Origin: Pseudomonadota bacterium
GTDB lineage: Bacteria > Pseudomonadota > Gammaproteobacteria > Methylococcales > Methylococcaceae
Length of the DNA: 64,000 bases
Assembly (NCBI GenBank): GCA_041178325.1
Contig: JBEGVN010000014.1
Coordinates: 12,476-76,475 of the forward strand
Reading direction: 5' to 3'
The notes beneath the pieces were generated by a model that saw only the letters and a program-made list of their open reading frames with translations, was not told the origin of the DNA and ran no database searches. The position numbers were made by a program, and so were the translations under genes. Shown one piece after another: positions 12,433 through 46,600 of this stretch (the first letter of the stretch is position 1; every line of letters begins with the position of its first letter).

Positions 12433-13856
12433 CAGTCGCCTCCGCGTGAGGTTCCCTGTGCCCAGGGTCCCTTGATCCCATAATCCCGGCTGCGTCCGGT
12501 TTGCATTAGGGTCTGGTAACGGGTGACGAGGCTTGCAATGGTTCCCCAGCGATTCTCAAGGCTTTTTCGCTCTTCTCGCAGTTTGGAGAGGGTCTGATCC
12601 AGAGCCTCATGAATGAGCCGCTGGTAGGGGTGATCATCCAATCGGCTACTTTCTCGGGTGGTTGCGATCATCTCTTCGATGAGATCGCCGGCCACTTCGA
12701 TCGCGAGAATCGGTGCGGCTTCCCCAGCAAAATGCTGAGCAAGCCCCGGGTCCTCGCGCGCAAGATTGCGCACCAAAGCGCTCAGCGCGTGGGGAGCCTG
12801 GTCCATGAATCTGAGTTCCTCCGGGGTGAAACGACCCTGACCAGTAGCAAACTTATGAAGGATGCCCGTGCTCCCGTCAGGCCCCCCGAGGAGGGTTTCG
12901 ATGCGGGAGATAAACCCCCGCATTTCAAAGGGAACGGTTCGTGGATGGAGGCATCCCTCGAGACTGTCCTCATCACACTGATACATCATGGCAAGGGTTC
13001 CTTTGTCTTGGGGCTCTCCTCCCTGGAGAAGCTCCCGGATACCGAGCAAGGGTGGAAGACTCTGGACCGGAAGCGTATGTCCCTTGTTGCGGATCCCTTC
13101 GGTAGGGCCCTGGATGATGACGGTTCCGGTGACGCTCATGAGGGCTTCGAACCAGGCTGTGTTGCCATCGGCGCCGAGGGTTCCCCCGGCATGCTGGTGA
13201 AGAGAGCGCCAGATCAGGTTTCCGGAAACGGTTTTTTGAAGGCCTGAAGGATCTGAGTTAACCGCCCGTTCCAGAGGATCCCCTTGGGCAAAGGTGAAAC
13301 TTTCAAAGGCGTCACCCAAGCCTTTGGCTAAAGACCATTGGGACACACGACTGCGCTGCTGTGCATCCATGGCGGATATACCGTCGTTGACGATCCCCTG
13401 AGCGAGCTGGCAACTGTTGGCCAAATGCTCATTGAGGGATTGGACCTTTTTTTGAAGATCACTCATGAGACTGCCGCAATCCGGGCACATGGCATTGATT
13501 CCGAGCTGAAAGGCATAGCCGCCGGCATTCGATGCAATACTCCGAAGCAGGCCTGTGAATTCCGATTGGTTAATGAAGGAAAACGAGCCGCCATAAAGAT
13601 CGATGCCGCCGCAGCCCCCACCAAAGCTGGGAGGTGTCAGGGTGACCGGACGGGCTTGCATGATCCTGTGACGCATGACGACACTGCCGCCACTCAGGAC
13701 GCCCCGACGCTGCCCCATCTGTGCGCTCGGTTGGGTGACATTACTCATGCCCTCAAACATGCGATCCAGATCATGATCGAGGGTTGCAATGCTCACAGGC
13801 GAAATTCCCATAAGAAATATTCCGTTTAAAACCCAGGATCTCAATCTCAATCTCAT
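12432..13856 (-). CDS. traH: F-type conjugal transfer pilus assembly protein TraH
   Basis: Signal peptide plus the hallmark GGGCGGIDLYGGSFSFINQSEF. ATGA overlap with the traF stop. Confidence 0.9.
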   Translation of the reverse strand: MRLRLRSWVLNGIFLMGISPVSIATLDHDLDRMFEGMSNVTQPSAQMGQRRGVLSGGSVVMRHRIMQARPVTLTPPSFGGGCGGIDLYGGSFSFINQSEFTGLLRSIASNAGGYAFQLGINAMCPDCGSLMSDLQKKVQSLNEHLANSCQLAQGIVNDGISAMDAQQRSRVSQWSLAKGLGDAFESFTFAQGDPLERAVNSDPSGLQKTVSGNLIWRSLHQHAGGTLGADGNTAWFEALMSVTGTVIIQGPTEGIRNKGHTLPVQSLPPLLGIRELLQGGEPQDKGTLAMMYQCDEDSLEGCLHPRTVPFEMRGFISRIETLLGGPDGSTGILHKFATGQGRFTPEELRFMDQAPHALSALVRNLAREDPGLAQHFAGEAAPILAIEVAGDLIEEMIATTRESSRLDDHPYQRLIHEALDQTLSKLREERKSLENRWGTIASLVTRYQTLMQTGRSRDYGIKGPWAQGTSRGGD

Positions 13857-35756: not shown

Positions 35757-36224
35757 TCAGCGGTTGCAGCCAACGGGTTCGACGCTGGTCCCACCCAGTA
35801 CCGTGACACTCTTGTTGGAAGGGTCTCCTCCCATCACCGTCAATCCGTTGCTGGCAGCCGCAAGATGCGCCTTGCAGTGAGCCTTGATGGTCAAGCTGCC
35901 CATGACGTTGACGTTGGAGTTAAAGCAGTACCAGCCATTCGGGTTGAGTAGCTGCAGGGTCGATCCCCCCATGATGTTTACGCCCGTATCAATCAGGACG
36001 AGATCCGGCCCCTTGGTGACAGCGGTGTCATCGGTACTTTGACCAATACCGAAAACCTTGACCGAGGAGGAGAGCACACGATACTTGGGTTTACTGCCAA
36101 AGGGGTGTTCACCCCATGCCTTGAGGCAATTAGTAACCGCACCGTCATAGGTATCGGCATTGGCTACTGGCTGAAGGCTTCCCAGAACAAGAACCGTCAG
36201 AATGGAGAGTAGTGATTTAGGCAT
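35757..36224 (-). CDS. Exported hypothetical protein (signal peptide, several Cys, repeated V-x-V-MGG strands)
   Basis: MPKSLLSILTVLVLGSLQPVANA signal. No family recognised. Confidence 0.5.
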   Translation of the reverse strand: MPKSLLSILTVLVLGSLQPVANADTYDGAVTNCLKAWGEHPFGSKPKYRVLSSSVKVFGIGQSTDDTAVTKGPDLVLIDTGVNIMGGSTLQLLNPNGWYCFNSNVNVMGSLTIKAHCKAHLAAASNGLTVMGGDPSNKSVTVLGGTSVEPVGCNR

Positions 36225-37530: not shown

Positions 37531-38115
37531 TTACCGAGGTGGCAGCGGAAGATTCTCTTGTCTTCCGTTGGTGTTGGTCTTGGAAGGGGGCAGTGGTATG
37601 CCTGTATTCGATGGTGGCAACGGAATACCGTTCGTCTCTGAAGCACCCGTAATCTCGCGAGGTGTTTGTGAAGAAGGGCGCGCAATCACACCTTGGACCG
37701 GGACTTGGTGACCGTGGCCATACATGCACTGGATGTAAGCATGATCGTAGCGTTGCTGGGCGGCATAACCTGCCTGATAACCCATTCCTGTGCCGATGGC
37801 GCTGCCGCCGATAAGGCCCGCACCCGCGCCAACGGCGGCGCCATATCCCCCTCCGATTGCGGCCCCTGAAGCCGCCCCCACTGCTGTTCCAACGACGGCT
37901 GCACCGGCCCCTGTCTCGACTGCGCTCGCCTGTGGTGTCGCCCCTGCCACCTGGGCCAGGGCATATTGACGGCAGAACCCATCATCCCGTGTAAAACGCG
38001 AAAAGTCCTGATGGGCTCCCGGAAGGACCAGGACGCTTGGACCGGTTGGAACGCCGCTGCAGCCGGACATCATCAAGCCTAAAGGGAGCAGCAAGGCAGT
38101 CTTTTTTTTCATCAT
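37531..38115 (-). CDS. Glycine-zipper lipoprotein
   Basis: MMKKKTALLLPLGLMMSGC lipobox and Gly-zipper GAAVVGTAVGAASGAAIGGGYGAAVGAGAGLIGGSAIG. ATGA overlap with the upstream stop. Confidence 0.75.
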   Translation of the reverse strand: MMKKKTALLLPLGLMMSGCSGVPTGPSVLVLPGAHQDFSRFTRDDGFCRQYALAQVAGATPQASAVETGAGAAVVGTAVGAASGAAIGGGYGAAVGAGAGLIGGSAIGTGMGYQAGYAAQQRYDHAYIQCMYGHGHQVPVQGVIARPSSQTPREITGASETNGIPLPPSNTGIPLPPSKTNTNGRQENLPLPPR

Positions 38116-38777
38116 TGCGATTTTTGTTGGCCAATCTCGGGTGTGACCTTTTCCCATGCTGTATCACAATGACGGACATAGGGGTAATACCCTTCGGGGG
38201 TATGGCATAAATACCAGCTGCCTTCCGTCTGTCCTTCGGGTGTCTGTGGAATCTCGGTCCAGCCGGAGGGACATAGCTTGACCGTCGGGTAGTAGCCATT
38301 GCTTTGAGGGCAAAAATGCCAGACCTTGGGGTATTGCCGAGTGGCCAATTCCTGAGGATTCCCCTCGGTTGGGTTCCCGGCGAGGGAAGGGTCCGAGTAG
38401 TAGGTTGAGGGTATGACCTCTTGAACTGCGGTATACCCATAATTCATGCCGTACCCGTACCATGGATAGCCCAGTCCGAAGCCGGGGACATAGCCGTAGG
38501 CGAAACCGGGATAGCCCACACCAAAGCCGACACCGTAGCCGTAGTAGGGCCATCCCCAGCCCCAGCCACCGCCCCAGTAGCCGCCACGCCAGCCGTAACC
38601 TCCCCAGTAGCCATGGTGACCACCCCAGCCTTGATGATGGCCCCAGCCGGGATGCCCGCCCCCCCAGTGCCCACCATGTCCGTAGCCTCCGTGTCCGCCA
38701 CGTGCGAAAGCCGCGGTCGGAATCAGCAGCAGGAGGCAAAGAACCGACAGGAATGCAGGCGATATCGATGTTTGCAT
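38112..38777 (-). CDS. Secreted protein with a ~90-aa Gly/His/Trp/Tyr-rich low-complexity tract and two C-terminal W-x-x-C..GYYP.V..C..W motifs
   Basis: Signal peptide ...IPTAAFA, then RGGHGGYGHGGHWGGGHPGWGHHQGWGGHHGYWGGYGWRGGYWGGGWGWGW.... C-terminal VWHFCPQSNGYYPTVKLCPSGW and SWYLCHTPEGYYPYVRHCDTAW. Confidence 0.7.
   Translation of the reverse strand: MQTSISPAFLSVLCLLLLIPTAAFARGGHGGYGHGGHWGGGHPGWGHHQGWGGHHGYWGGYGWRGGYWGGGWGWGWPYYGYGVGFGVGYPGFAYGYVPGFGLGYPWYGYGMNYGYTAVQEVIPSTYYSDPSLAGNPTEGNPQELATRQYPKVWHFCPQSNGYYPTVKLCPSGWTEIPQTPEGQTEGSWYLCHTPEGYYPYVRHCDTAWEKVTPEIGQQKSQ
38424..38699 (-). repeat. Low-complexity coding tract (G/H/W/Y/P/F only) with reiterated CCCCAGCC-like units on the plus strand
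   Basis: Read directly in the sequence and in the translation. Confidence 0.7.
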
Positions 38778-38786
38778 GCGATTACA

Positions 38787-39005
38787 TTACGTCTCGGATG
38801 AGGAAGTTCGGGCTGCGGCTGCTTCCGCATGGAAGCCTTCGATGATTTCGGCAACGTCACTCTCACAGCCCGCACAGCCCGAACAAACGCCCGTTGCATC
38901 GGAGAGGGCTTCAAGTGTCGTCAGTCCATCGCTGAATCGTTGCCGAAGTTTGGAAAGTCGAGTTCCGCTACACGGGCAAACGATGTCATTTTCCAGAAAG
39001 TCCAT
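38787..39005 (-). CDS. Bfd-like [2Fe-2S]-binding protein
   Basis: The Cys pattern VCPC ... GVCSGCAGC matches the BFD-like 2Fe-2S domain spacing. 72 aa. Confidence 0.7.
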   Translation of the reverse strand: MDFLENDIVCPCSGTRLSKLRQRFSDGLTTLEALSDATGVCSGCAGCESDVAEIIEGFHAEAAAARTSSSET

Positions 39006-39056: not shown

Positions 39057-42000
39057 TCAATCACTGAAATATTCAACGCGAATGGGAACCGGACTTTTAT
39101 CACTCTGGAATTCGGCTTGTCGCAAGTAAATCGAGCCATCGTCGATATCGTAATCATGAACCAGGCGGTCGCGTATGGATTCTGCACGATCTTCAGCAAG
39201 GTCGAGCAGAAGATCGGGGCTGGTCCGCCACTCTTCAAGTGCATGTTGCCAGGCCCTATCAAAGGCAGGGGAGTCAGTTCTGTCCTCTTTTTCTTCGAGC
39301 GGCATCATTTCTTGCTTGTCGGGATGATGTTCCATGAAATACCGGGTGAATTGGCGCCGGATATCCTGTTCCGACAACTGGAGATCTTCCCGTGAAATGA
39401 CCGGTTTGCCGGCCAGTCGCATGTCATGGACATAAGCTTCCTTGAGTTCAAGCTTCAGTGCGTCATCGGCGAGCGCCATGCCATCGGTCTTTGGATTGGC
39501 ACTGGGCGTGATTTCAATGACGCCGCCGTCCTGATCCTTGAAGACGTCAATGACGCGTGCAAGGTTGCTCATGAACTTGGGATTGACCTCTCTTTGTCCA
39601 GGTTCAAAGGGAATCGACTTCTCTTCATGGGTGGTTGGAATCAGATCCTGAACCAGAGTTGCCGGAGTAGTGAATACCTTGCCAAAGAACTGGACCAGAG
39701 CTTCAGCATACAGAGTCCCAAGTTCATAGCTCGGGTTCTCGAGATCCCCGTAAATGGGAAGGTCGATGTCGAGGTTTCCCCGATTGTCTTTCAGCATCCA
39801 AAGGGCAAGGTCAACCAGAAGATGATGCGCATCTTCAATCTTTTCACCCAGTGTCAGTCGGTCAATGACCGCTCGGTTCTCCACTTCAATAGTCGATTGA
39901 TGGATCTGATAGTGAAGATCAAGATTCAGCTTGCCCCGGTTTACCCGATAGCCAGAGAAACGGCCTGCGTACTGCGGGAAGCTGGTCATGTTGAGACCGG
40001 TGAAGTCGAGGAGAAGATCGGTGTGATCCTGGTAATCCATGGGTTCCAGATCGCCGGATAGCCTGACTGGCGAGTTGCGGTTGATCTTCCCTGAAAGACT
40101 GACCTCGGCTTTGCCATCATGACGTGACGTAAGCCCTCGAAGGGTGCCGCTCAACTCCCTGACGGACGTTGATAGCTGAGGCTTGAAACCAAGATCACTG
40201 TAATCCACCCGACTGCCATGAAAACGCACCAGCCCAATGGCTGCATGGGGAGGCTCATGGTAGGGAGAGGGATCAAAATGCATGGCTTTGATTTCCGTCG
40301 GGACGATGGCCGGATCTTCAATTCGGAAGAGTTCGGCCAGATTGAGGTGGTGATCTGCCTTGAGGACCAAATGCAGATAGGCCTCCTCGAAGTCCATGAC
40401 GCGGGTAAAAAATCGTTTCGGATCACTGCTGATGGCCACATCATCCAGAGTGAGCTTCTTGACACTGATGATGTTTCGACCTGAGATCGGATCCCGCGTT
40501 TCTAGTTCATCGATATGGCCGTCGCCTTCAAATTCGAAGTGATGATGCTCACCTGGAATGATCCGAAGTTCCCCGGTGAAATTGGCATAGCCGCGCTTGA
40601 GGGCCAAGCGGCTTACGGCGTTCCAGTAGGGCGCAAGAATCGGCAGACGAAATCGTTGAAGGTCAATCCGAAAGACAGCGCTCAGAGGGCTGCGTGCCAT
40701 TCGACCGGAAATAGCAACACTGCCGCGTGATCCGATACGGGCGTTCGCAATGATGTCCGTATCATCATGGGCCCGGCTATCCAGGTCATCGGCACTGACA
40801 TTGAGATCCTTGAAATTGACTTGTGTCGGAGGTGTTGTCCCAAGATCCGTGAGATGGGCCCCGGAATGGGTGAGGGAGATGGCCTCGATCTCATAGGTCC
40901 AATGTTTTTTAGGGGCGGAAGAGGCACCCGATGTTCCCTGTTTTCCAAGACCCAAAGTCAGTCCTTTGAGCTCAAAGTGATTATCAGGATGGACGATCCA
41001 GTCCATTTTTGCACCCTCGACATGGACCTGATTGGCCCACCAATGGGTGCGGAGTGCATCGCTGTGATAGCCGTAAAGATTCAGTTCGTGGACCGCAATG
41101 GCAGGATGGCCGTCTTCCTTCACTTCCCCCTGACGACCGGTCAAACGTTTCATGTGTAATCGTTTGGTCAGGGTTTCAAAGTGGGCCTCCTCCGCATCAA
41201 GTTGTTCCATCGTGACTGCGGCCATCCTGGAATGATCGAGATGGGTGTGCTTTACACTGATGTCGTGATTCAACCGATCCCATTCGATTCCTTCGGCCCT
41301 GCCGCCAAGGGTTGTAAAAGTCTTGGTATGACTCTCCCCAAATGTGAGCTGTTCGAGTGCAATGCAATCATCCGATAGGGTGAGTCTGATGTTGAGGGCC
41401 TTGATATCGGTCAGGGTGCCAAACGCGCCGGAAAGTTCTTTTCCATGCCCCAGGGCCGCTGTCACCGTCCGCTCATGGGGATCAAAAACCACATCATCGA
41501 TGTGTATCATCGGCGCATTCATGCGAGGACCACTGATGCCATGAATGATGAGGTTGTCCAGACGGAATAGGTCATCCTCCCCTCGGGGGTGAAGCCCTTC
41601 GAGGATCAATTCGGCAACCTGCGTCTCGACGTAACTGAGCCCTGTGATCTGAATCGGATCAATGTCGTGGACTTTTGCCGTGTATTCACTGTCATAGGCG
41701 GGCGCGATAAGACGCTTGAGGTGCGCCTTGGGCGATGAAAGATCCAGGATTTCGATGGCTTCTGCGCGATAGTGATGCCGAGCTGGCTCTGCAGATAGGT
41801 GGCGACCGCTCAGCAAGGCCATGGTGAACTCGGTGGAGATTTCAGTCTGATGCCGCAGGCGAACCTCAGTTGCCTTGAAATGCTCAAGTGCTAACCGTGT
41901 GGGTTTGGTCATCCCCGGTTCAAACGCCATTTTGATGTGACCTGTGAATACCCCGGAAAGAGGCTGCCAGGGCAGCGTGCTCGGATAAAGATCCTTCCAG

Positions 42001-42653
42001 GCGGCCAACTGGGCATCCTCAAGATTCAAAGCAAGTTCTAGGGGGCTTGTGGCATCGTCGCGGTGAACCTGAAGACCATAGGATCCGTCTGAAGGATGTT
42101 GCCATCGAAGGTCGAGGTTCAATTCGCCTTTTCGGGGCCCACGTTCGAAGTGTCCCTTGATCGCATCCAGTTCGACCAGCACCTTGCCGGCATCGAGTTC
42201 ATGGATGACGCGCACATTCCCACCCGTAAAGCTTACTTTTCGTGGCAGGGGAAAAGAATGCTGCGGCGAATTCTCCGGGGGTAATACGATTTTCCCCAAA
42301 CGATAGCGACCATCAGCACCCTGCGTCATCCGAATGGAGGGCTTGACCAGTTCAACCCGGTACCGAGGTGCCCACCAGTGTTCATCACTCTGGCCTTCAT
42401 AGTGAACCTCGAGGCTTTCAGCGGATAGCGCAGTGCCAAGGTCATCACGCAGTCGAATCTTATAGATGATTGCCGCGTGGCGAAGGGGGTCGATGTGCCA
42501 GTGATCAAGATGGGCCGAAACACCCATGATATTTCCTACCGACCTTAGGATGAATTGCTCGCTTGCAATGGAGATACGGCTCCACAGCATCACGGCGGTG
42601 ATAAGGCCGATGATGATGACACCAACGAAATGCCATCTTTTCAGTGACCTCAC
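39057..42653 (-). CDS. Large envelope protein, DUF748/AsmA-like
   Basis: 1198 aa with a single N-terminal TM helix (HFVGVIIIGLITAVMLW) and a long repetitive beta-rich body. The GTG start overlaps the Rieske stop (GTGA). Family is from memory. Confidence 0.6.
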   Translation of the reverse strand: MRSLKRWHFVGVIIIGLITAVMLWSRISIASEQFILRSVGNIMGVSAHLDHWHIDPLRHAAIIYKIRLRDDLGTALSAESLEVHYEGQSDEHWWAPRYRVELVKPSIRMTQGADGRYRLGKIVLPPENSPQHSFPLPRKVSFTGGNVRVIHELDAGKVLVELDAIKGHFERGPRKGELNLDLRWQHPSDGSYGLQVHRDDATSPLELALNLEDAQLAAWKDLYPSTLPWQPLSGVFTGHIKMAFEPGMTKPTRLALEHFKATEVRLRHQTEISTEFTMALLSGRHLSAEPARHHYRAEAIEILDLSSPKAHLKRLIAPAYDSEYTAKVHDIDPIQITGLSYVETQVAELILEGLHPRGEDDLFRLDNLIIHGISGPRMNAPMIHIDDVVFDPHERTVTAALGHGKELSGAFGTLTDIKALNIRLTLSDDCIALEQLTFGESHTKTFTTLGGRAEGIEWDRLNHDISVKHTHLDHSRMAAVTMEQLDAEEAHFETLTKRLHMKRLTGRQGEVKEDGHPAIAVHELNLYGYHSDALRTHWWANQVHVEGAKMDWIVHPDNHFELKGLTLGLGKQGTSGASSAPKKHWTYEIEAISLTHSGAHLTDLGTTPPTQVNFKDLNVSADDLDSRAHDDTDIIANARIGSRGSVAISGRMARSPLSAVFRIDLQRFRLPILAPYWNAVSRLALKRGYANFTGELRIIPGEHHHFEFEGDGHIDELETRDPISGRNIISVKKLTLDDVAISSDPKRFFTRVMDFEEAYLHLVLKADHHLNLAELFRIEDPAIVPTEIKAMHFDPSPYHEPPHAAIGLVRFHGSRVDYSDLGFKPQLSTSVRELSGTLRGLTSRHDGKAEVSLSGKINRNSPVRLSGDLEPMDYQDHTDLLLDFTGLNMTSFPQYAGRFSGYRVNRGKLNLDLHYQIHQSTIEVENRAVIDRLTLGEKIEDAHHLLVDLALWMLKDNRGNLDIDLPIYGDLENPSYELGTLYAEALVQFFGKVFTTPATLVQDLIPTTHEEKSIPFEPGQREVNPKFMSNLARVIDVFKDQDGGVIEITPSANPKTDGMALADDALKLELKEAYVHDMRLAGKPVISREDLQLSEQDIRRQFTRYFMEHHPDKQEMMPLEEKEDRTDSPAFDRAWQHALEEWRTSPDLLLDLAEDRAESIRDRLVHDYDIDDGSIYLRQAEFQSDKSPVPIRVEYFSD

Positions 42654-43645
42654 GGTTTGCCCCCTTCGGTCGATGCTTCAAGGCGACGCCGCCACATTTT
42701 TCGGAATTGAACGATCGCGCGATCCGATGCAATGAGAATGTCCTCATGCGCATCGAGACTGCTTGGGGGAAGGATGGAGCGCACAACCCTCTCGTCTTCC
42801 CGGAGGATCCATCGATTGCTGATGGCGAGAAGGTGGCTGTAAAGGGCACCCAGAAAGGGTATGCGCACCTGATGGCAAGAGCGGATGTAAAACCGCGTTT
42901 TTCGGGGATTGACGGGAACGAACGCTACAAGAAGCCTGAGCTTTGGATGAATGCGCAATTGCCAGAGGCCTGGAAAGCGGTATTCGAGGTTGGGCGCCTG
43001 TCTTTCTGCAAGATCTTTCAACATATCAAGGGTTTTGGGAGGGTGGCCATCCTCTTTCCGATTGGTGACCCAGACCCGGATGGCCTCCGCATCGGACTCT
43101 ACATAAGGTCCATCCACCCGGGTTCGCCCGCCCGCCCCAATGCTGTTGCGATGGACGAAGGGAAGATGTGCCACATCCAGTTGATTTTCAATGGCTCGGG
43201 TCATGTGGACGTCCCAGTCACTTGAAATGTCGGATCCGCGCCACCTCTGATCCATGTCATTGAAGAGGGGTACCGGCGTTTCGTCAGGCGATGCATTGCC
43301 CCACCAGCCCCAAATCCAGCCCTGAACCTCCCTGAGCGGAATCGTTCTGAGCTTGAGCTTTGAGGCGATCTTGCCGCTTGGGCCCAAGGCCGGAATATGG
43401 GTGCAGTCCCCTTGCTCATTGAAGCAAAAGCCGTGGAAAGGGCATTGGACTTGACCATTACGGATCGATCCACTGGAGAGGGAGGCCCCAAGATGTGGGC
43501 AGCGATCGCTCGTCATCAACAAAGTGCCATCCGGCAGGCGACAGACCATCCAGATCTCTCCGAATCGCTCAAAGCGTTGTGGCCTCTTCGTGATTTCGCG
43601 GGTCAGAAAAAGGGGGTACCAAAGATTCCGGGGAAATTCGCTCAT
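42650..43645 (-). CDS. Rieske [2Fe-2S] non-haem-iron oxygenase (ring-hydroxylating alpha-subunit / PaO-like)
   Basis: Rieske CPHLGASL...CPFHGFCF and mononuclear iron motif DVAHLPFVH. MSEFPRNLWYP start at 43645. Confidence 0.85.
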   Translation of the reverse strand: MSEFPRNLWYPLFLTREITKRPQRFERFGEIWMVCRLPDGTLLMTSDRCPHLGASLSSGSIRNGQVQCPFHGFCFNEQGDCTHIPALGPSGKIASKLKLRTIPLREVQGWIWGWWGNASPDETPVPLFNDMDQRWRGSDISSDWDVHMTRAIENQLDVAHLPFVHRNSIGAGGRTRVDGPYVESDAEAIRVWVTNRKEDGHPPKTLDMLKDLAERQAPNLEYRFPGLWQLRIHPKLRLLVAFVPVNPRKTRFYIRSCHQVRIPFLGALYSHLLAISNRWILREDERVVRSILPPSSLDAHEDILIASDRAIVQFRKMWRRRLEASTEGGKP

Positions 43646-43682
43646 GGGCAATGGAGTTCGCCGTGGGATGTCTGTTTTTGAC

Positions 43683-46600
43683 CTAACGCGTGGCGACGGC
43701 CTCACGCCAGTGCGCTATTTTTAACCGGAATCGCTCCATGGCGAGATAGACCACCGGCGTACTGTACAGGGTAATGATCTGACTCAGAAGCAGGCCGCCG
43801 ATGATACTGATTCCAAGCGGTTGCCGAATCTCAAATCCGGGACCGCGACCGAATGCCAGCGGAATGGCACCGAAGATGGCTGCAAGCGTGGTCATCATGA
43901 TGGGTCGAAAGCGCAAAAGACACGCCTGGATGATCGCCTCCTTGGGGTCGAGTCCTTCATGCTGCTCAAGATGAAGTGCAAAATCGATCATCATGATCGC
44001 GTTTTTCTTGACGATCCCGATCAGCAGAATGATGCCAATGAGGCCGATGACGTTGAGTTCGATCTTGAACATCATCAATCCCAAAAGGGCGCCGACACCG
44101 GCAGAGGGGATCGTTGAGAGAATGGTGATGGGATGCAGGGTATTCTCGTACAGCATGCCGAGAACGATGTAGACGGAGATGAGCGCTGCCAGAACCAGAT
44201 AGGGCTGACTTTTGAGAGACGACTGAAATGCGAGTGCGGCGCCCTGGAACTTTCCCTTGATCCCGTCAGGGAGATCGATGCGGGCTTCGACAGCCTTGAT
44301 GTCCTTGATGGCGTCGCTCAACGAATACCCGGGTATCAGATTGAAGGAATAGGTGGTGGAGGGAAACTGCTCGCTGTGATTCACCTGAAGGGGAACGTTT
44401 TCCAATCGAAATTGCGCCAACTGACGTAATGGAATCTGCTTTCCAGTGCGATTGGCAACATAAAGGTTTTCAAGCGCACCGGCGTGTCTTGCGGCATCAA
44501 GCGGAACGCTCATGACCACATGGGATTGGTTCAGTGGACCGTAGAGGGTTGAGATCTGGCGTTGCCCGAAAGCGTCATAAAGGGTGTCGTCGATCGCCTG
44601 AATGGTTACCCCAAGTCGCATGGCGGTTTCCCGGTCGATTTCAACGATGGCGCTGATCCCTGCATTTTGGTGATCCATGCTGAGATCGGTGATGGCCGGA
44701 ATCGTCCGGAGTGCATCAAGAACGCGGGGAGACCAATCCCGAAGTTCATCGAGGGTGCCGGCTTTAAGGCTGTACTGCCACTGGGTTGCGCTGACTTTTC
44801 CTCCGATGCGAAGATCCTGAGGCGGCTGGAGAAAAAGCTGGCCGCCCGGCACCTTGAGCATTTTGCCTCGAAGTCGCGCGATGACGCCGTCTGCGGAGAT
44901 CTTTCGCTCTTCAAGCGGCTTTAAGGCCCCAAATACGCGTGCGGTATTGACAGCGCTGCCGCCGCCGGGGCCTGATCCACCCGCAAATCCCACAACGACT
45001 TGTATCGCAGGGTCGTCACCCATGATTCTGATGTACTGGTGAAGCCTCGCAACCATGGCTTGATAAGAGGTTTGTTGATCTGCGATCACCTGGCCCATCA
45101 GGCGGCCCGTATCCTGCTGCGGAAAAAAGCCCTTGGGTATGGTCTTGTAGAGATAGCCTGTTGCAAAGACAGTGAGCGAGGTGATCAGAAGCATCAGGAT
45201 TTGGTGGTCCACGACCCAGCGAATACCGCGGCCATAACCGGACTCGATTCGTTGTTGAAAGGCTTCTGTCAGACGTCTGAATCGACCCTTGTGGCGGACT
45301 TCCAGGGATTCAGGGCGCAGAAAGAGACTGCAGAGCATCGGTGTGGTGATCAGCGAGATCAGCATCGAGATGAGAACGGCAGCGGCCAACGTCACCGAGA
45401 ATTCTCGAAAGAGCCGGCCGATCATGCCTTCCATGAGGAGCAGGGGAAGAAAGACGGCAACCAGCGAAATGCTGATGGAAAGTACCGTGAACCCGATCTC
45501 CTGAGAGCCCTTGATTGCAGCAGCACGCGCAGACAAGCCGCGTTGAAGATGGCGCGTGATGTTTTCCGTCACCACGATGGCATCGTCCACCACAAATCCT
45601 GTCGCAATGGTCAATGCCATCAGGGTGAGGTTATTGAGGCTGTAGTGAAGGGCGTACATCACGCCATAGGTGCCAAGGATCGATACCGGAATGGCTATGA
45701 CCGGAATAAGTGTGGTCCTTAAGTTACCAAGGAAAAGATAGACCACAAAGACCACGAGCAGGATCGAGACGACGAGGCTGAGCTCGATGTCATGGACAGA
45801 TGCCCGTATGGTGAGTGTCCGGTCAATGACCTTGGTCAGCGACATTCCGGCAGGAATGGAGGCCTGAAGTTCGGGAAGCATCGCGATGACCCGATCTGCA
45901 GCTTCGATGATGTTGGCGCCGGGCTGGCGATTGACGAGAAGTATCACGCAGGGCTGATCACCATTGAACCCAATAGCGCGGGCATCCTCGGCAGCCTCGG
46001 TAATGGTTGCAAGATCCCCGAGGCGCACTGTCGTTCCGTTGGCATTAGCCACGATCAGGTTCTGATACTCCTCGACCTTCACCAGTTGATCGAAGGGGCG
46101 GAGGATCCAGGTCAGATCATGGTTTTCGATGATTCCGACAGGTCTTCGGACGTTCTGACCCTGTATGACTTTTCGAATGTCTTCAAGGCCAAGACCGTAG
46201 TTATTGAGATAGGCGGGATCCAGCTCGATCCTGATGCCAGGCAGCGAGCTCCCCCCGATGACCACCTGACCGACCCCAGGAGTTTGACTGAGTTTTTGTT
46301 GCAGGATTGATGAAGCAACGTTGTAGACCTCGGTCATTCGATAGAGATCGGATGACAGGGCGAGAATGATGACCGGGCTATCCGCCGGATTGACCTTGCG
46401 GTAATTGGGTAGCGTCGGAAGGTTCGGCGGAAGAAAACTGCGCGCGGCGTTGATTGCCGATTGCACATCCCTTGAGGCAGCATCGATATCGCGATCCAGA
46501 TCAAACTGGAGGACGATTGAGGTGCTGCCGAGGGTTGAGGTGGAACTCATCTCGGTGACACCGGCAATCCGTCCAAATTGCCGCTCTAGCGGTGTTGCTA

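Follow-up and report, generated by a model that had tools for sequence, protein, structure and literature searches.

What does an exported protein built over much of its length from little but Gly, His, Trp and Tyr do in a bacterial envelope, and does it act alone? Gene A raises this question. It is located in a 64,000-nucleotide stretch of a Methylococcaceae genome, referred to here as the window (positions 12,476 to 76,475 of contig JBEGVN010000014.1, assembly GCA_041178325.1), and its product, P0001, joins a predicted signal peptide and a low-complexity tract to two copies of a Cys-bracketed module. Gene A is directly followed by gene B, which encodes a glycine-zipper lipoprotein. The main new result, and the most informative feature of the locus, is that the two genes constitute a conserved two-gene cassette.

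A conserved cassette of two genes

The association of the module with gene B was analyzed in 401 sampled Pseudomonadota genomes. The module is present in 14 of them, gene B in 18, and both in 12. In all 12 genomes carrying both, gene B lies directly downstream of the module gene on the same strand, as it does in the window, and 12 of the 14 module-positive genomes have an adjoining gene B. This co-occurrence corresponds to a Fisher p value of 5e-17, uncorrected for phylogeny. The same arrangement is seen from the gene B side: the gene immediately upstream encodes a module protein at three of three loci, located in Paraburkholderia tagetis, on a metagenome contig with a protein assigned by NCBI to Cupriavidus basilensis, and on a third metagenome contig. 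The pairing was also found in Zoogloea, where the two genes overlap by 4 nucleotides (nt), and on a contig from another lineage. Outside Methylococcaceae, the A-B pair alone persists of the longer conserved gene run described below. Since adjacency is almost always kept, A and B probably work as a pair in the cell envelope.

Several variants of the cassette were observed. In one of the sampled genomes, of the same class (G159:C1:250682-252397), two A-B pairs stand in direct tandem, in the order A-B-A-B. Two soil metagenome contigs (L023:3-1135 and L024), from independent assemblies, carry A, a chimera and B in tandem. The chimera, P0100 (110 amino acids, aa), begins with the first ~52 residues of gene B, from the signal peptide and lipobox up to C-R-Q-F-A, and continues with the Tyr/Pro stretch and the Cys module of gene A; it looks like the outcome of unequal recombination. 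P0100 was considered as a natural B::A fusion, that is as Rosetta-stone evidence; since it is a chimera in the array A-(B::A)-B and most likely arose by recombination, it is weak evidence of this kind. In a genome without a module gene (G352), a gene B homologue (L016:11-589, minus strand) ends in a Tyr/Pro-rich tail of its own, ...VYYAPPPPVYYAPPRPVYYAPYPYY, resembling a fusion of an aromatic-rich stretch to gene B. Finally, the genome to which the window belongs (G000) holds a second, degenerate cassette outside the window (contig C2:12569-13188). It consists of an 86-aa lipoprotein made almost entirely of G, Y, W, R and F, without the Cys module, followed 30 nt further on by a 109-aa gene B paralogue. 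The paralogue is without the glycine zipper and keeps the Cys-bearing end segments V-P-S-G-P...C-R-T-F-A and Y-L-Q-C-M-Y; neither protein matches Pfam. This cassette hints that the association may link a Gly/aromatic disordered protein with the helical clasp of gene B described below.

Judged by codon alignment, gene A is a real gene under purifying selection. In comparisons with three Methylococcaceae homologues from genome bins (L003, L004 and L005), the proportion of synonymous differences (pS) is saturated at 0.75-0.88, while the proportion of nonsynonymous differences (pN) is 0.07-0.20. Within the low-complexity tract pN amounts to 0.07-0.13, and it is low in the C-terminal part as well. 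Because pS is saturated while pN remains low, the frame appears to be translated and is under purifying selection, tract included. The other frames of the stretch hold many overlapping open reading frames (ORFs), which might suggest that gene A too is a spurious or decaying low-complexity artefact of GC-rich repetitive DNA. This explanation is effectively refuted by the conservation pattern: pN lies far under the saturated pS in the gene A frame, homologues number in the thousands and their motif positions are invariant, both modules are modelled with confidence by AlphaFold2, and the ATGA coupling to the conserved partner gene is conserved too.

The first 25 residues of P0001, MQTSISPAFLSVLCLLLLIPTAAFA, end in an A-x-A cleavage site recognised by inspection. 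The junction of A-x-A with RGGHGG is also present in the three close homologues L003-L005, and the AlphaFold2 model places a helix at residues 7-16, within the predicted signal peptide. The tract that follows (residues 26-116, 91 aa) contains 39 G, 15 Y, 10 W, 8 H, 5 P and 3 F, so that these six amino acids account for 80 of its 91 residues, in agreement with the initial annotation of the locus, which had described such a tract after a signal peptide. Its composition is the most extreme of the genome. When ORFs of at least 80 aa from the same 2.5-Mb genome were ranked with a 90-residue sliding window, gene A came top of 4,982 ORFs, with 72 G/H/W/Y residues in its best position; the runner-up had 49, and the mean was 14.9 (standard deviation 5.3). 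Residues 30-116 have a predicted local distance difference test score (pLDDT) under 50 almost throughout, and are predicted to be disordered. At the DNA level, no regular tandem repeat was found in the tract, with only weak 6/12/18-nt arrays of 2-5 copies, and a promoter and terminator scan around gene A returned 0 promoter-like sites.

Table 1. Features of the A-B locus, in window coordinates.
Feature	Position	Strand	Description and basis
Gene A (P0001)	38112..38777	minus	221 aa; signal peptide, predicted disordered G/H/W/Y tract, two putatively Cys-stapled modules (ORF, translation)
Predicted Sec signal peptide, residues 1-25	38703..38777	minus	Read by eye; A-F-A cleavage site, then Arg26
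Gly/His-rich head, residues 26-62	38592..38702	minus	8 His, two H-G-G units, W/Y between; pLDDT <50
W/G run (residues 63-77), then alternating aromatic-Gly segment (78-116)	38430..38591	minus	Composition; pLDDT <50
Linker, residues 117-152	38322..38429	minus	Alignment of 34 members; pLDDT 48-56
Cys module 1, residues 153-173	38259..38321	minus	Regular-expression match, W-x-x-C-x4-GYYP-x-V-x2-C-x3-W; pLDDT 91-92
Cys module 2, residues 188-208	38154..38216	minus	Regular-expression match, motif as in module 1; pLDDT 88-93
Gene B	37531..38115	minus	194-aa lipoprotein, MMKKK...LMMSGC lipobox; ATG overlaps gene A TGA (ATGA, 38112-38115)
Bfd-like [2Fe-2S] protein gene	38787..39005	minus	72 aa; PF04324, E 5.7e-10; stop 9 nt before gene A start

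The module family and the partner lipoprotein

Gene A belongs to a very large, uncharacterised family that falls within no described family by sequence or fold. The C-terminal 87 residues were searched apart from the low-complexity tract, as had been advised at the outset. An exhaustive phmmer search of 1.84 billion cluster representatives with this part gave 217 clusters at 50% identity (E <=0.001), and a profile built from 34 members gave at least 2,661 clusters at 90% identity. Among the matches listed, every source name is 'hypothetical protein' and no member has a Pfam domain; the sources named are Zoogloea, Methyloterricola oryzae, Nitrosomonadaceae, Burkholderiales and a Dissulfurispiraceae bin. 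P0001 itself matched 0 families in Pfam-A (2025 copy) and NCBIfam 20.0 at E up to 1, and 34 diverse family members gave isolated chance matches only in these two collections (E 0.012 or worse). The statement, in the initial annotation, that the Cys motif recurs in unannotated proteobacterial envelope proteins and has no assigned function was thereby borne out. A full-text literature search with the strings GYYPYV and YYPYV retrieved no paper. Five long multi-repeat phmmer matches (P0023, P0040, P0075, P0103 and P0127) have no Cys motif and were discarded as repeat-inflated false positives.

The family was delimited by one to three C-terminal copies of W-x-x-C-x4-[GA]-Y-Y-P-x-V-x2-C-x3-W, following a signal peptide and a low-complexity Gly/His/aromatic/Pro region. 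P0001 has this organisation, with copies WHFCPQSNGYYPTVKLCPSGW (residues 153-173) and WYLCHTPEGYYPYVRHCDTAW (residues 188-208) that score 53 and 50 bits against a 29-position profile (A3) and share 38% identity over 24 aa (pairwise E 7e-8). The two copies had been recognised from the start; the spacing given for them then, C-x5-GYYP, is actually C-x4-GYYP. Loss of the motif in homologues had been named beforehand as grounds for giving up the interpretation, and the alignments show the reverse: among two-module members, 11 positions (W153, C156, P164, C169, W173, W188, C191, Y198, P199, C204 and W208) show no variation in either alignment, of 34 or of 47 sequences. From 345 distinct copies, the module of ~29 residues has the consensus x-x-W-Y-Y-C-x-x-P-x-G-Y-Y-P-Y-V-x-x-C-P-x-G-W-x-x-V-P. 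Among the module-bearing proteins in hand at that point, 154 had one module, 85 had two and 10 had three.

Family members share a common layout, in which the signal peptide is often followed by a Gly/His head, then by an aromatic/Pro/Gly-rich stretch, a P-P-V-Y-I-E-Q-like segment and the one to three modules. In gene A the linker carries a diverged form of this segment, I-P-S-T-Y-Y-S-D-P. A His-rich head, with at least 4 His in approximately the first 45 mature residues, is present in 58% of 237 members, some of which have 16. Tract length and composition differ widely from member to member, and the window's gene A is an unusually Trp- and His-rich member.

In the AlphaFold2 model, computed with the 47-sequence alignment, residues 150-210 have a pLDDT of 88-93 and form short strands at residues 152-156, 174-177, 188-192, 195-197 and 209-211. 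As modelled, the module is a small β unit without detectable known relative. The two invariant Cys of each module are 12 residues apart in an exported protein, and for this reason most likely form a disulfide that staples the unit. A search of PDB sequences with the module profile produced only chance matches to antibody complementarity-determining region 3, and the low-complexity tract gave 0 matches among PDB sequences, with no solved metal-binding protein. Foldseek comparison of the gene A model with PDB and BFVD returned nothing at E <=0.001.

The product of gene B starts with the lipobox L-M-M-S-G-C, continues with a helix carrying Cys48, a long glycine zipper in the form of a hairpin and a second helix carrying Cys130 (R-Y-D-x-A-Y-x-Q-C-M-Y), and ends in a Pro-rich tail. 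The lipid-bearing Cys (C19), both internal Cys and the zipper glycines are all invariant in 54 homologues. The two flanking helices are the best modelled part of the protein (pLDDT 83-91 with AlphaFold2). At least 6,344 clusters at 90% identity belong to the family; relatives are named 'YMGG-like glycine zipper-containing protein' by NCBI, some are called SlyB or YcfJ by JGI, and many have precomputed PF13436/PF13441 matches. The gene B profile found nothing significant among PDB sequences, and Foldseek of the gene B model against PDB nothing at E <=0.001. No literature was found on glycine-zipper lipoproteins in methanotrophs. A third gene B paralogue of the same genome (G000 contig C88:28714-29097, outside the window; 127 aa) stands alone after a gene for a UbiH-like FAD monooxygenase, and passes the Pfam Gly-zipper_OmpA cut-off (27.9 vs 27 bits).

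Genomic surroundings and distribution

Synteny extends over the entire run Rieske-DUF748-Bfd-A-B-(K channel)-RluA-155-aa protein in the three Methylococcaceae loci L003-L005. Within the window, the Bfd-like gene lies between gene A and a gene for a 1,198-aa DUF748 (AsmA-like) protein (39057-43705, minus strand), upstream of which a Rieske/VanA-type oxygenase gene is coupled. No bacterioferritin gene is present among the ORFs annotated around the Bfd gene (~30-51 kb of the window). Synteny of the Bfd gene is restricted to L003-L005 and is absent in L007 and L009-L013; this gene is a lineage-specific neighbour, outside the conserved A-B pair. The Bfd, DUF748 and Rieske genes were considered as family-wide functional partners and ruled out, their synteny being confined to close Methylococcaceae relatives. 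At the far end of the run, the 155-aa exported protein (35757-36224, minus strand) has no Pfam or NCBIfam match; it is syntenic and 87-95% identical in the three Methylococcaceae loci, and is more conserved than its neighbours.

Further exported low-complexity proteins are encoded elsewhere in the same genome, outside the window (C96:33277-33678, C16:8895-9869 and C102). Among them are a lipoprotein of 133 aa rich in Gly, Tyr and Pro, a protein of 324 aa whose head reads H-G-G-F-G-G-G, and proteins rich in Met and Gly. One of the latter lies within a 634-aa ORF that terminates in H-L-H-G, a motif characteristic of multicopper oxidases.

The module family was found in 26 of 121 sampled Methylococcales genomes, representing 14 of 39 genera. 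Compared with Pseudomonadota overall (14 of 401 genomes), it is about six times commoner in Methylococcales (odds ratio 7.6), a difference that is confounded by phylogeny. The enrichment is suggestive.

The pair might be read as a bacteriocin system, in which A would be processed to a Gly/His-rich antimicrobial peptide and B would be the lipoprotein conferring immunity. A small secreted Gly-rich protein is indeed followed by a translationally coupled small membrane-associated protein, tandem A-B-A-B arrays exist, and distribution within the genus is patchy and accessory. However, the leader of gene A is an ordinary Sec signal peptide and not a double-glycine leader, and in none of eight loci does an exporter, lysis or processing gene stand next to the pair. 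The chromosomal position is syntenic in related genomes, and the strong purifying selection, with residues invariant across classes, is unlike that of diversifying toxin-immunity pairs. We consider a bacteriocin and its immunity protein very unlikely.

Possible roles and comparison with known systems

The reading that we favour, tentatively and at somewhat less than an even chance, is that A is docked on the SlyB-like lipoprotein B and that its tract constitutes a layer, beneath the outer membrane, responsive to metals or to pH. The gene A protein would leave the cytoplasm by the Sec route, and its modules would be oxidised once in the periplasm. Folded, these C-terminal modules would then dock onto a periplasmic clasp of B, made of the conserved N- and C-terminal helices and joined by B's own conserved Cys pair. 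Such docking would tether the disordered His/Trp/Tyr/Gly tract of A below the outer membrane, where it could self-associate into a metal- or pH-sensitive layer serving as an envelope scaffold or buffer. We infer the contact between A and B, the outer-membrane location, the disulfides and any metal binding.

Several observations weigh against this reading. Some members, among them the one from Paraburkholderia, have no His-rich head, so that a metal role cannot apply to the whole family. About a third of the gene B-positive genomes (6 of 18) are without the module, and at loci L020-L022 module genes stand without an adjoining gene B; neither partner, therefore, strictly needs the other. The pair is also accessory, since it is patchy even within the window's own genus, where 2 of 9 genomes carry the module family. 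As to the likeness of gene B to SlyB, its Pfam scores remain under the cut-offs, with 20 bits for PF13441 (cut-off 28.9) and 17.3 bits for PF13436 (cut-off 27). In the Foldseek comparison SlyB (chain 7ojf_A of cryo-EM entry 7ojf) ranked 33rd, the zipper segment aligning over 44 columns with 30% identity, a root-mean-square deviation of 3.0 and a non-significant E of 7.3.

The composition of the tract, from which the initial annotation had suggested metal binding, redox chemistry or self-assembly, bears on two further explanations. In the first, the primary role of A is periplasmic metal handling and B is a mere anchor: the Gly/His/Trp head would coordinate Cu(II), or alternatively Zn(II)/Ni(II), by way of its His imidazoles together with backbone amides from the glycines that come next, and A would act as a copper buffer or store that supplies the methane monooxygenase, a copper-dependent enzyme. 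Residues 26-62 contain 8 His and two H-G-G units bordered by Trp/Tyr. The Cu(II) site of the prion octarepeat is made up of the His and the amide nitrogens of the next two Gly, and several His may share one Cu at low occupancy (PMC6721516). By this analogy, metal binding by A, possibly of copper, is plausible. The frequency of a His-rich head in the family (at least 4 His in 58% of members) and the roughly six-fold excess of the family in sampled Methylococcales, uncorrected for phylogeny, point in the same direction. On the other hand, the tract has no regular octapeptide periodicity. It also has no amino-terminal Cu(II)- and Ni(II)-binding (ATCUN) site, because the predicted mature N-terminus R-G-G-H, with the cleavage placed by inspection, puts His at position 4 and not 3. 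Some members are without any His, the tract matches no solved metal-binding protein in the PDB, and copper genes stand next to the pair in none of the loci inspected. Within the same methanotroph genus, moreover, 7 of 9 genomes do not carry the pair. A literature search for His-rich or Gly-rich periplasmic copper proteins in methanotrophs gave nothing relevant. Metal handling as the primary role appears unlikely.

In the second explanation, A is a structural or self-assembling material, which would undergo pH-dependent condensation or β-rich assembly through its aromatic-Gly and Gly-His-Tyr segments and would build a periplasmic or surface matrix for which metal is not needed. The tract is the extreme G/H/W/Y outlier of the genome and is predicted to be disordered, its amino acids are nonetheless conserved (pN 0.07-0.13), and aromatic residues alternate with Gly at residues 78-116. 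In GHG-x-Y-type peptides, His-Tyr hydrogen bonding and aromatic stacking drive phase separation (PMC6884462). The second cassette of the same genome, where a Gly/Tyr-rich lipoprotein without the Cys module precedes the gene B paralogue, is also in keeping with a material. Against this, the tract has only one exact G-H-G-x-Y unit. Among family members it differs so widely in length and composition that a generic sticky spacer is a better fit than a defined material, and the neighbouring genes include none for assembly or export machinery. We regard a self-assembling material as quite unlikely.

A joint reading can also be formulated. A and B together would be an outer-membrane-tethered disordered metal sponge, whose head binds Cu(II) as the prion protein does and condenses on metal loading or a shift in pH. 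The pair would then provide a periplasmic copper reservoir or buffer in methanotrophs and other carriers, with the Cys module as a new small fold that docks on glycine-zipper lipoproteins. This combination is decidedly improbable. For the tract itself, metal binding and pH-switchable condensation cannot be separated on the present data.

The significance of the pair lies first with its lipoprotein. That glycine-zipper lipoproteins, SlyB and YfgH among them, stabilise the outer membrane under stress is a recent insight: in E. coli both oligomerise around lipids and outer-membrane proteins, and roles outside E. coli are described as largely unexplored (bioRxiv 10.64898/2025.12.22.696046). A major branch of these lipoproteins (at least 6,344 clusters at 90% identity) is usually accompanied by an exported partner of its own, which combines a module without sequence or fold relative and a predicted disordered His/aromatic tract under purifying selection. 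The module is a candidate new small disulfide fold, and the A-B pair is a concrete two-gene unit present in cultivable carriers (Paraburkholderia, Cupriavidus, Zoogloea and cultured methanotrophs). If the His/Trp head does bind copper, the pair would be a new element in the periplasmic copper handling of methane oxidisers. Even if the head binds no copper, the pair would be among the few candidate conserved bacterial periplasmic disordered proteins with a defined anchor.

The octapeptide region of the mammalian prion protein resembles the gene A tract in being disordered, rich in Gly, His and Trp and N-terminal in an exported protein, and in having His-Gly-Gly with a nearby Trp. Gene A differs from it in organism and cell compartment, has no homology to it and no eight-residue period; the two H-G-G units are followed by Y or H and not by Gly-Trp. 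Gene A is thus without the tandem eight-residue His-Gly-Gly-Gly-Trp repeats that characterise the octarepeat, although the chemistry may still apply. The histidine-rich proteins of the squid beak, and glycine/tyrosine-rich structural proteins, are likewise disordered and dominated by Gly, His and Tyr, with pH-switchable self-association through His-Tyr and aromatic contacts (PMC6884462). The squid-beak proteins carry multiple G-H-G-x-Y repeats, while gene A has the single exact unit G-H-G-G-Y at residues 28-32. The likeness is one of composition only, gene A being found in the bacterial periplasm and having an additional folded Cys module and a lipoprotein partner.

Envelope operons of the E. 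coli ydbH-ynbE-ydbL type encode an AsmA-like protein, a small lipoprotein and a small periplasmic protein. In the lineage studied here, the A-B pair similarly lies directly downstream of an AsmA-like (DUF748) gene in one co-directional cluster. Unlike in these operons, DUF748 adjacency is limited to close Methylococcaceae relatives and absent from every other A-B locus examined, and we know of no sequence similarity of gene A or gene B to YnbE or YdbL.

A further close comparison is that of gene B with the SlyB/Pcp, YfgH, OsmB and YMGG-type outer-membrane lipoproteins of the Pfam Gly-zipper clan, to which gene A itself is unrelated. To our knowledge, no described member of this group has an obligate, translationally coupled, disordered partner. 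Gene B shares with them the lipobox Cys and a long GxxxG/AxxxG zipper. It differs from them in that the zipper is bracketed by two conserved helices with the invariant C48/C130 pair and is followed by a Pro-rich tail. Among the known glycine-zipper lipoproteins, gene B represents a branch of its own, set apart by the Cys clasp.

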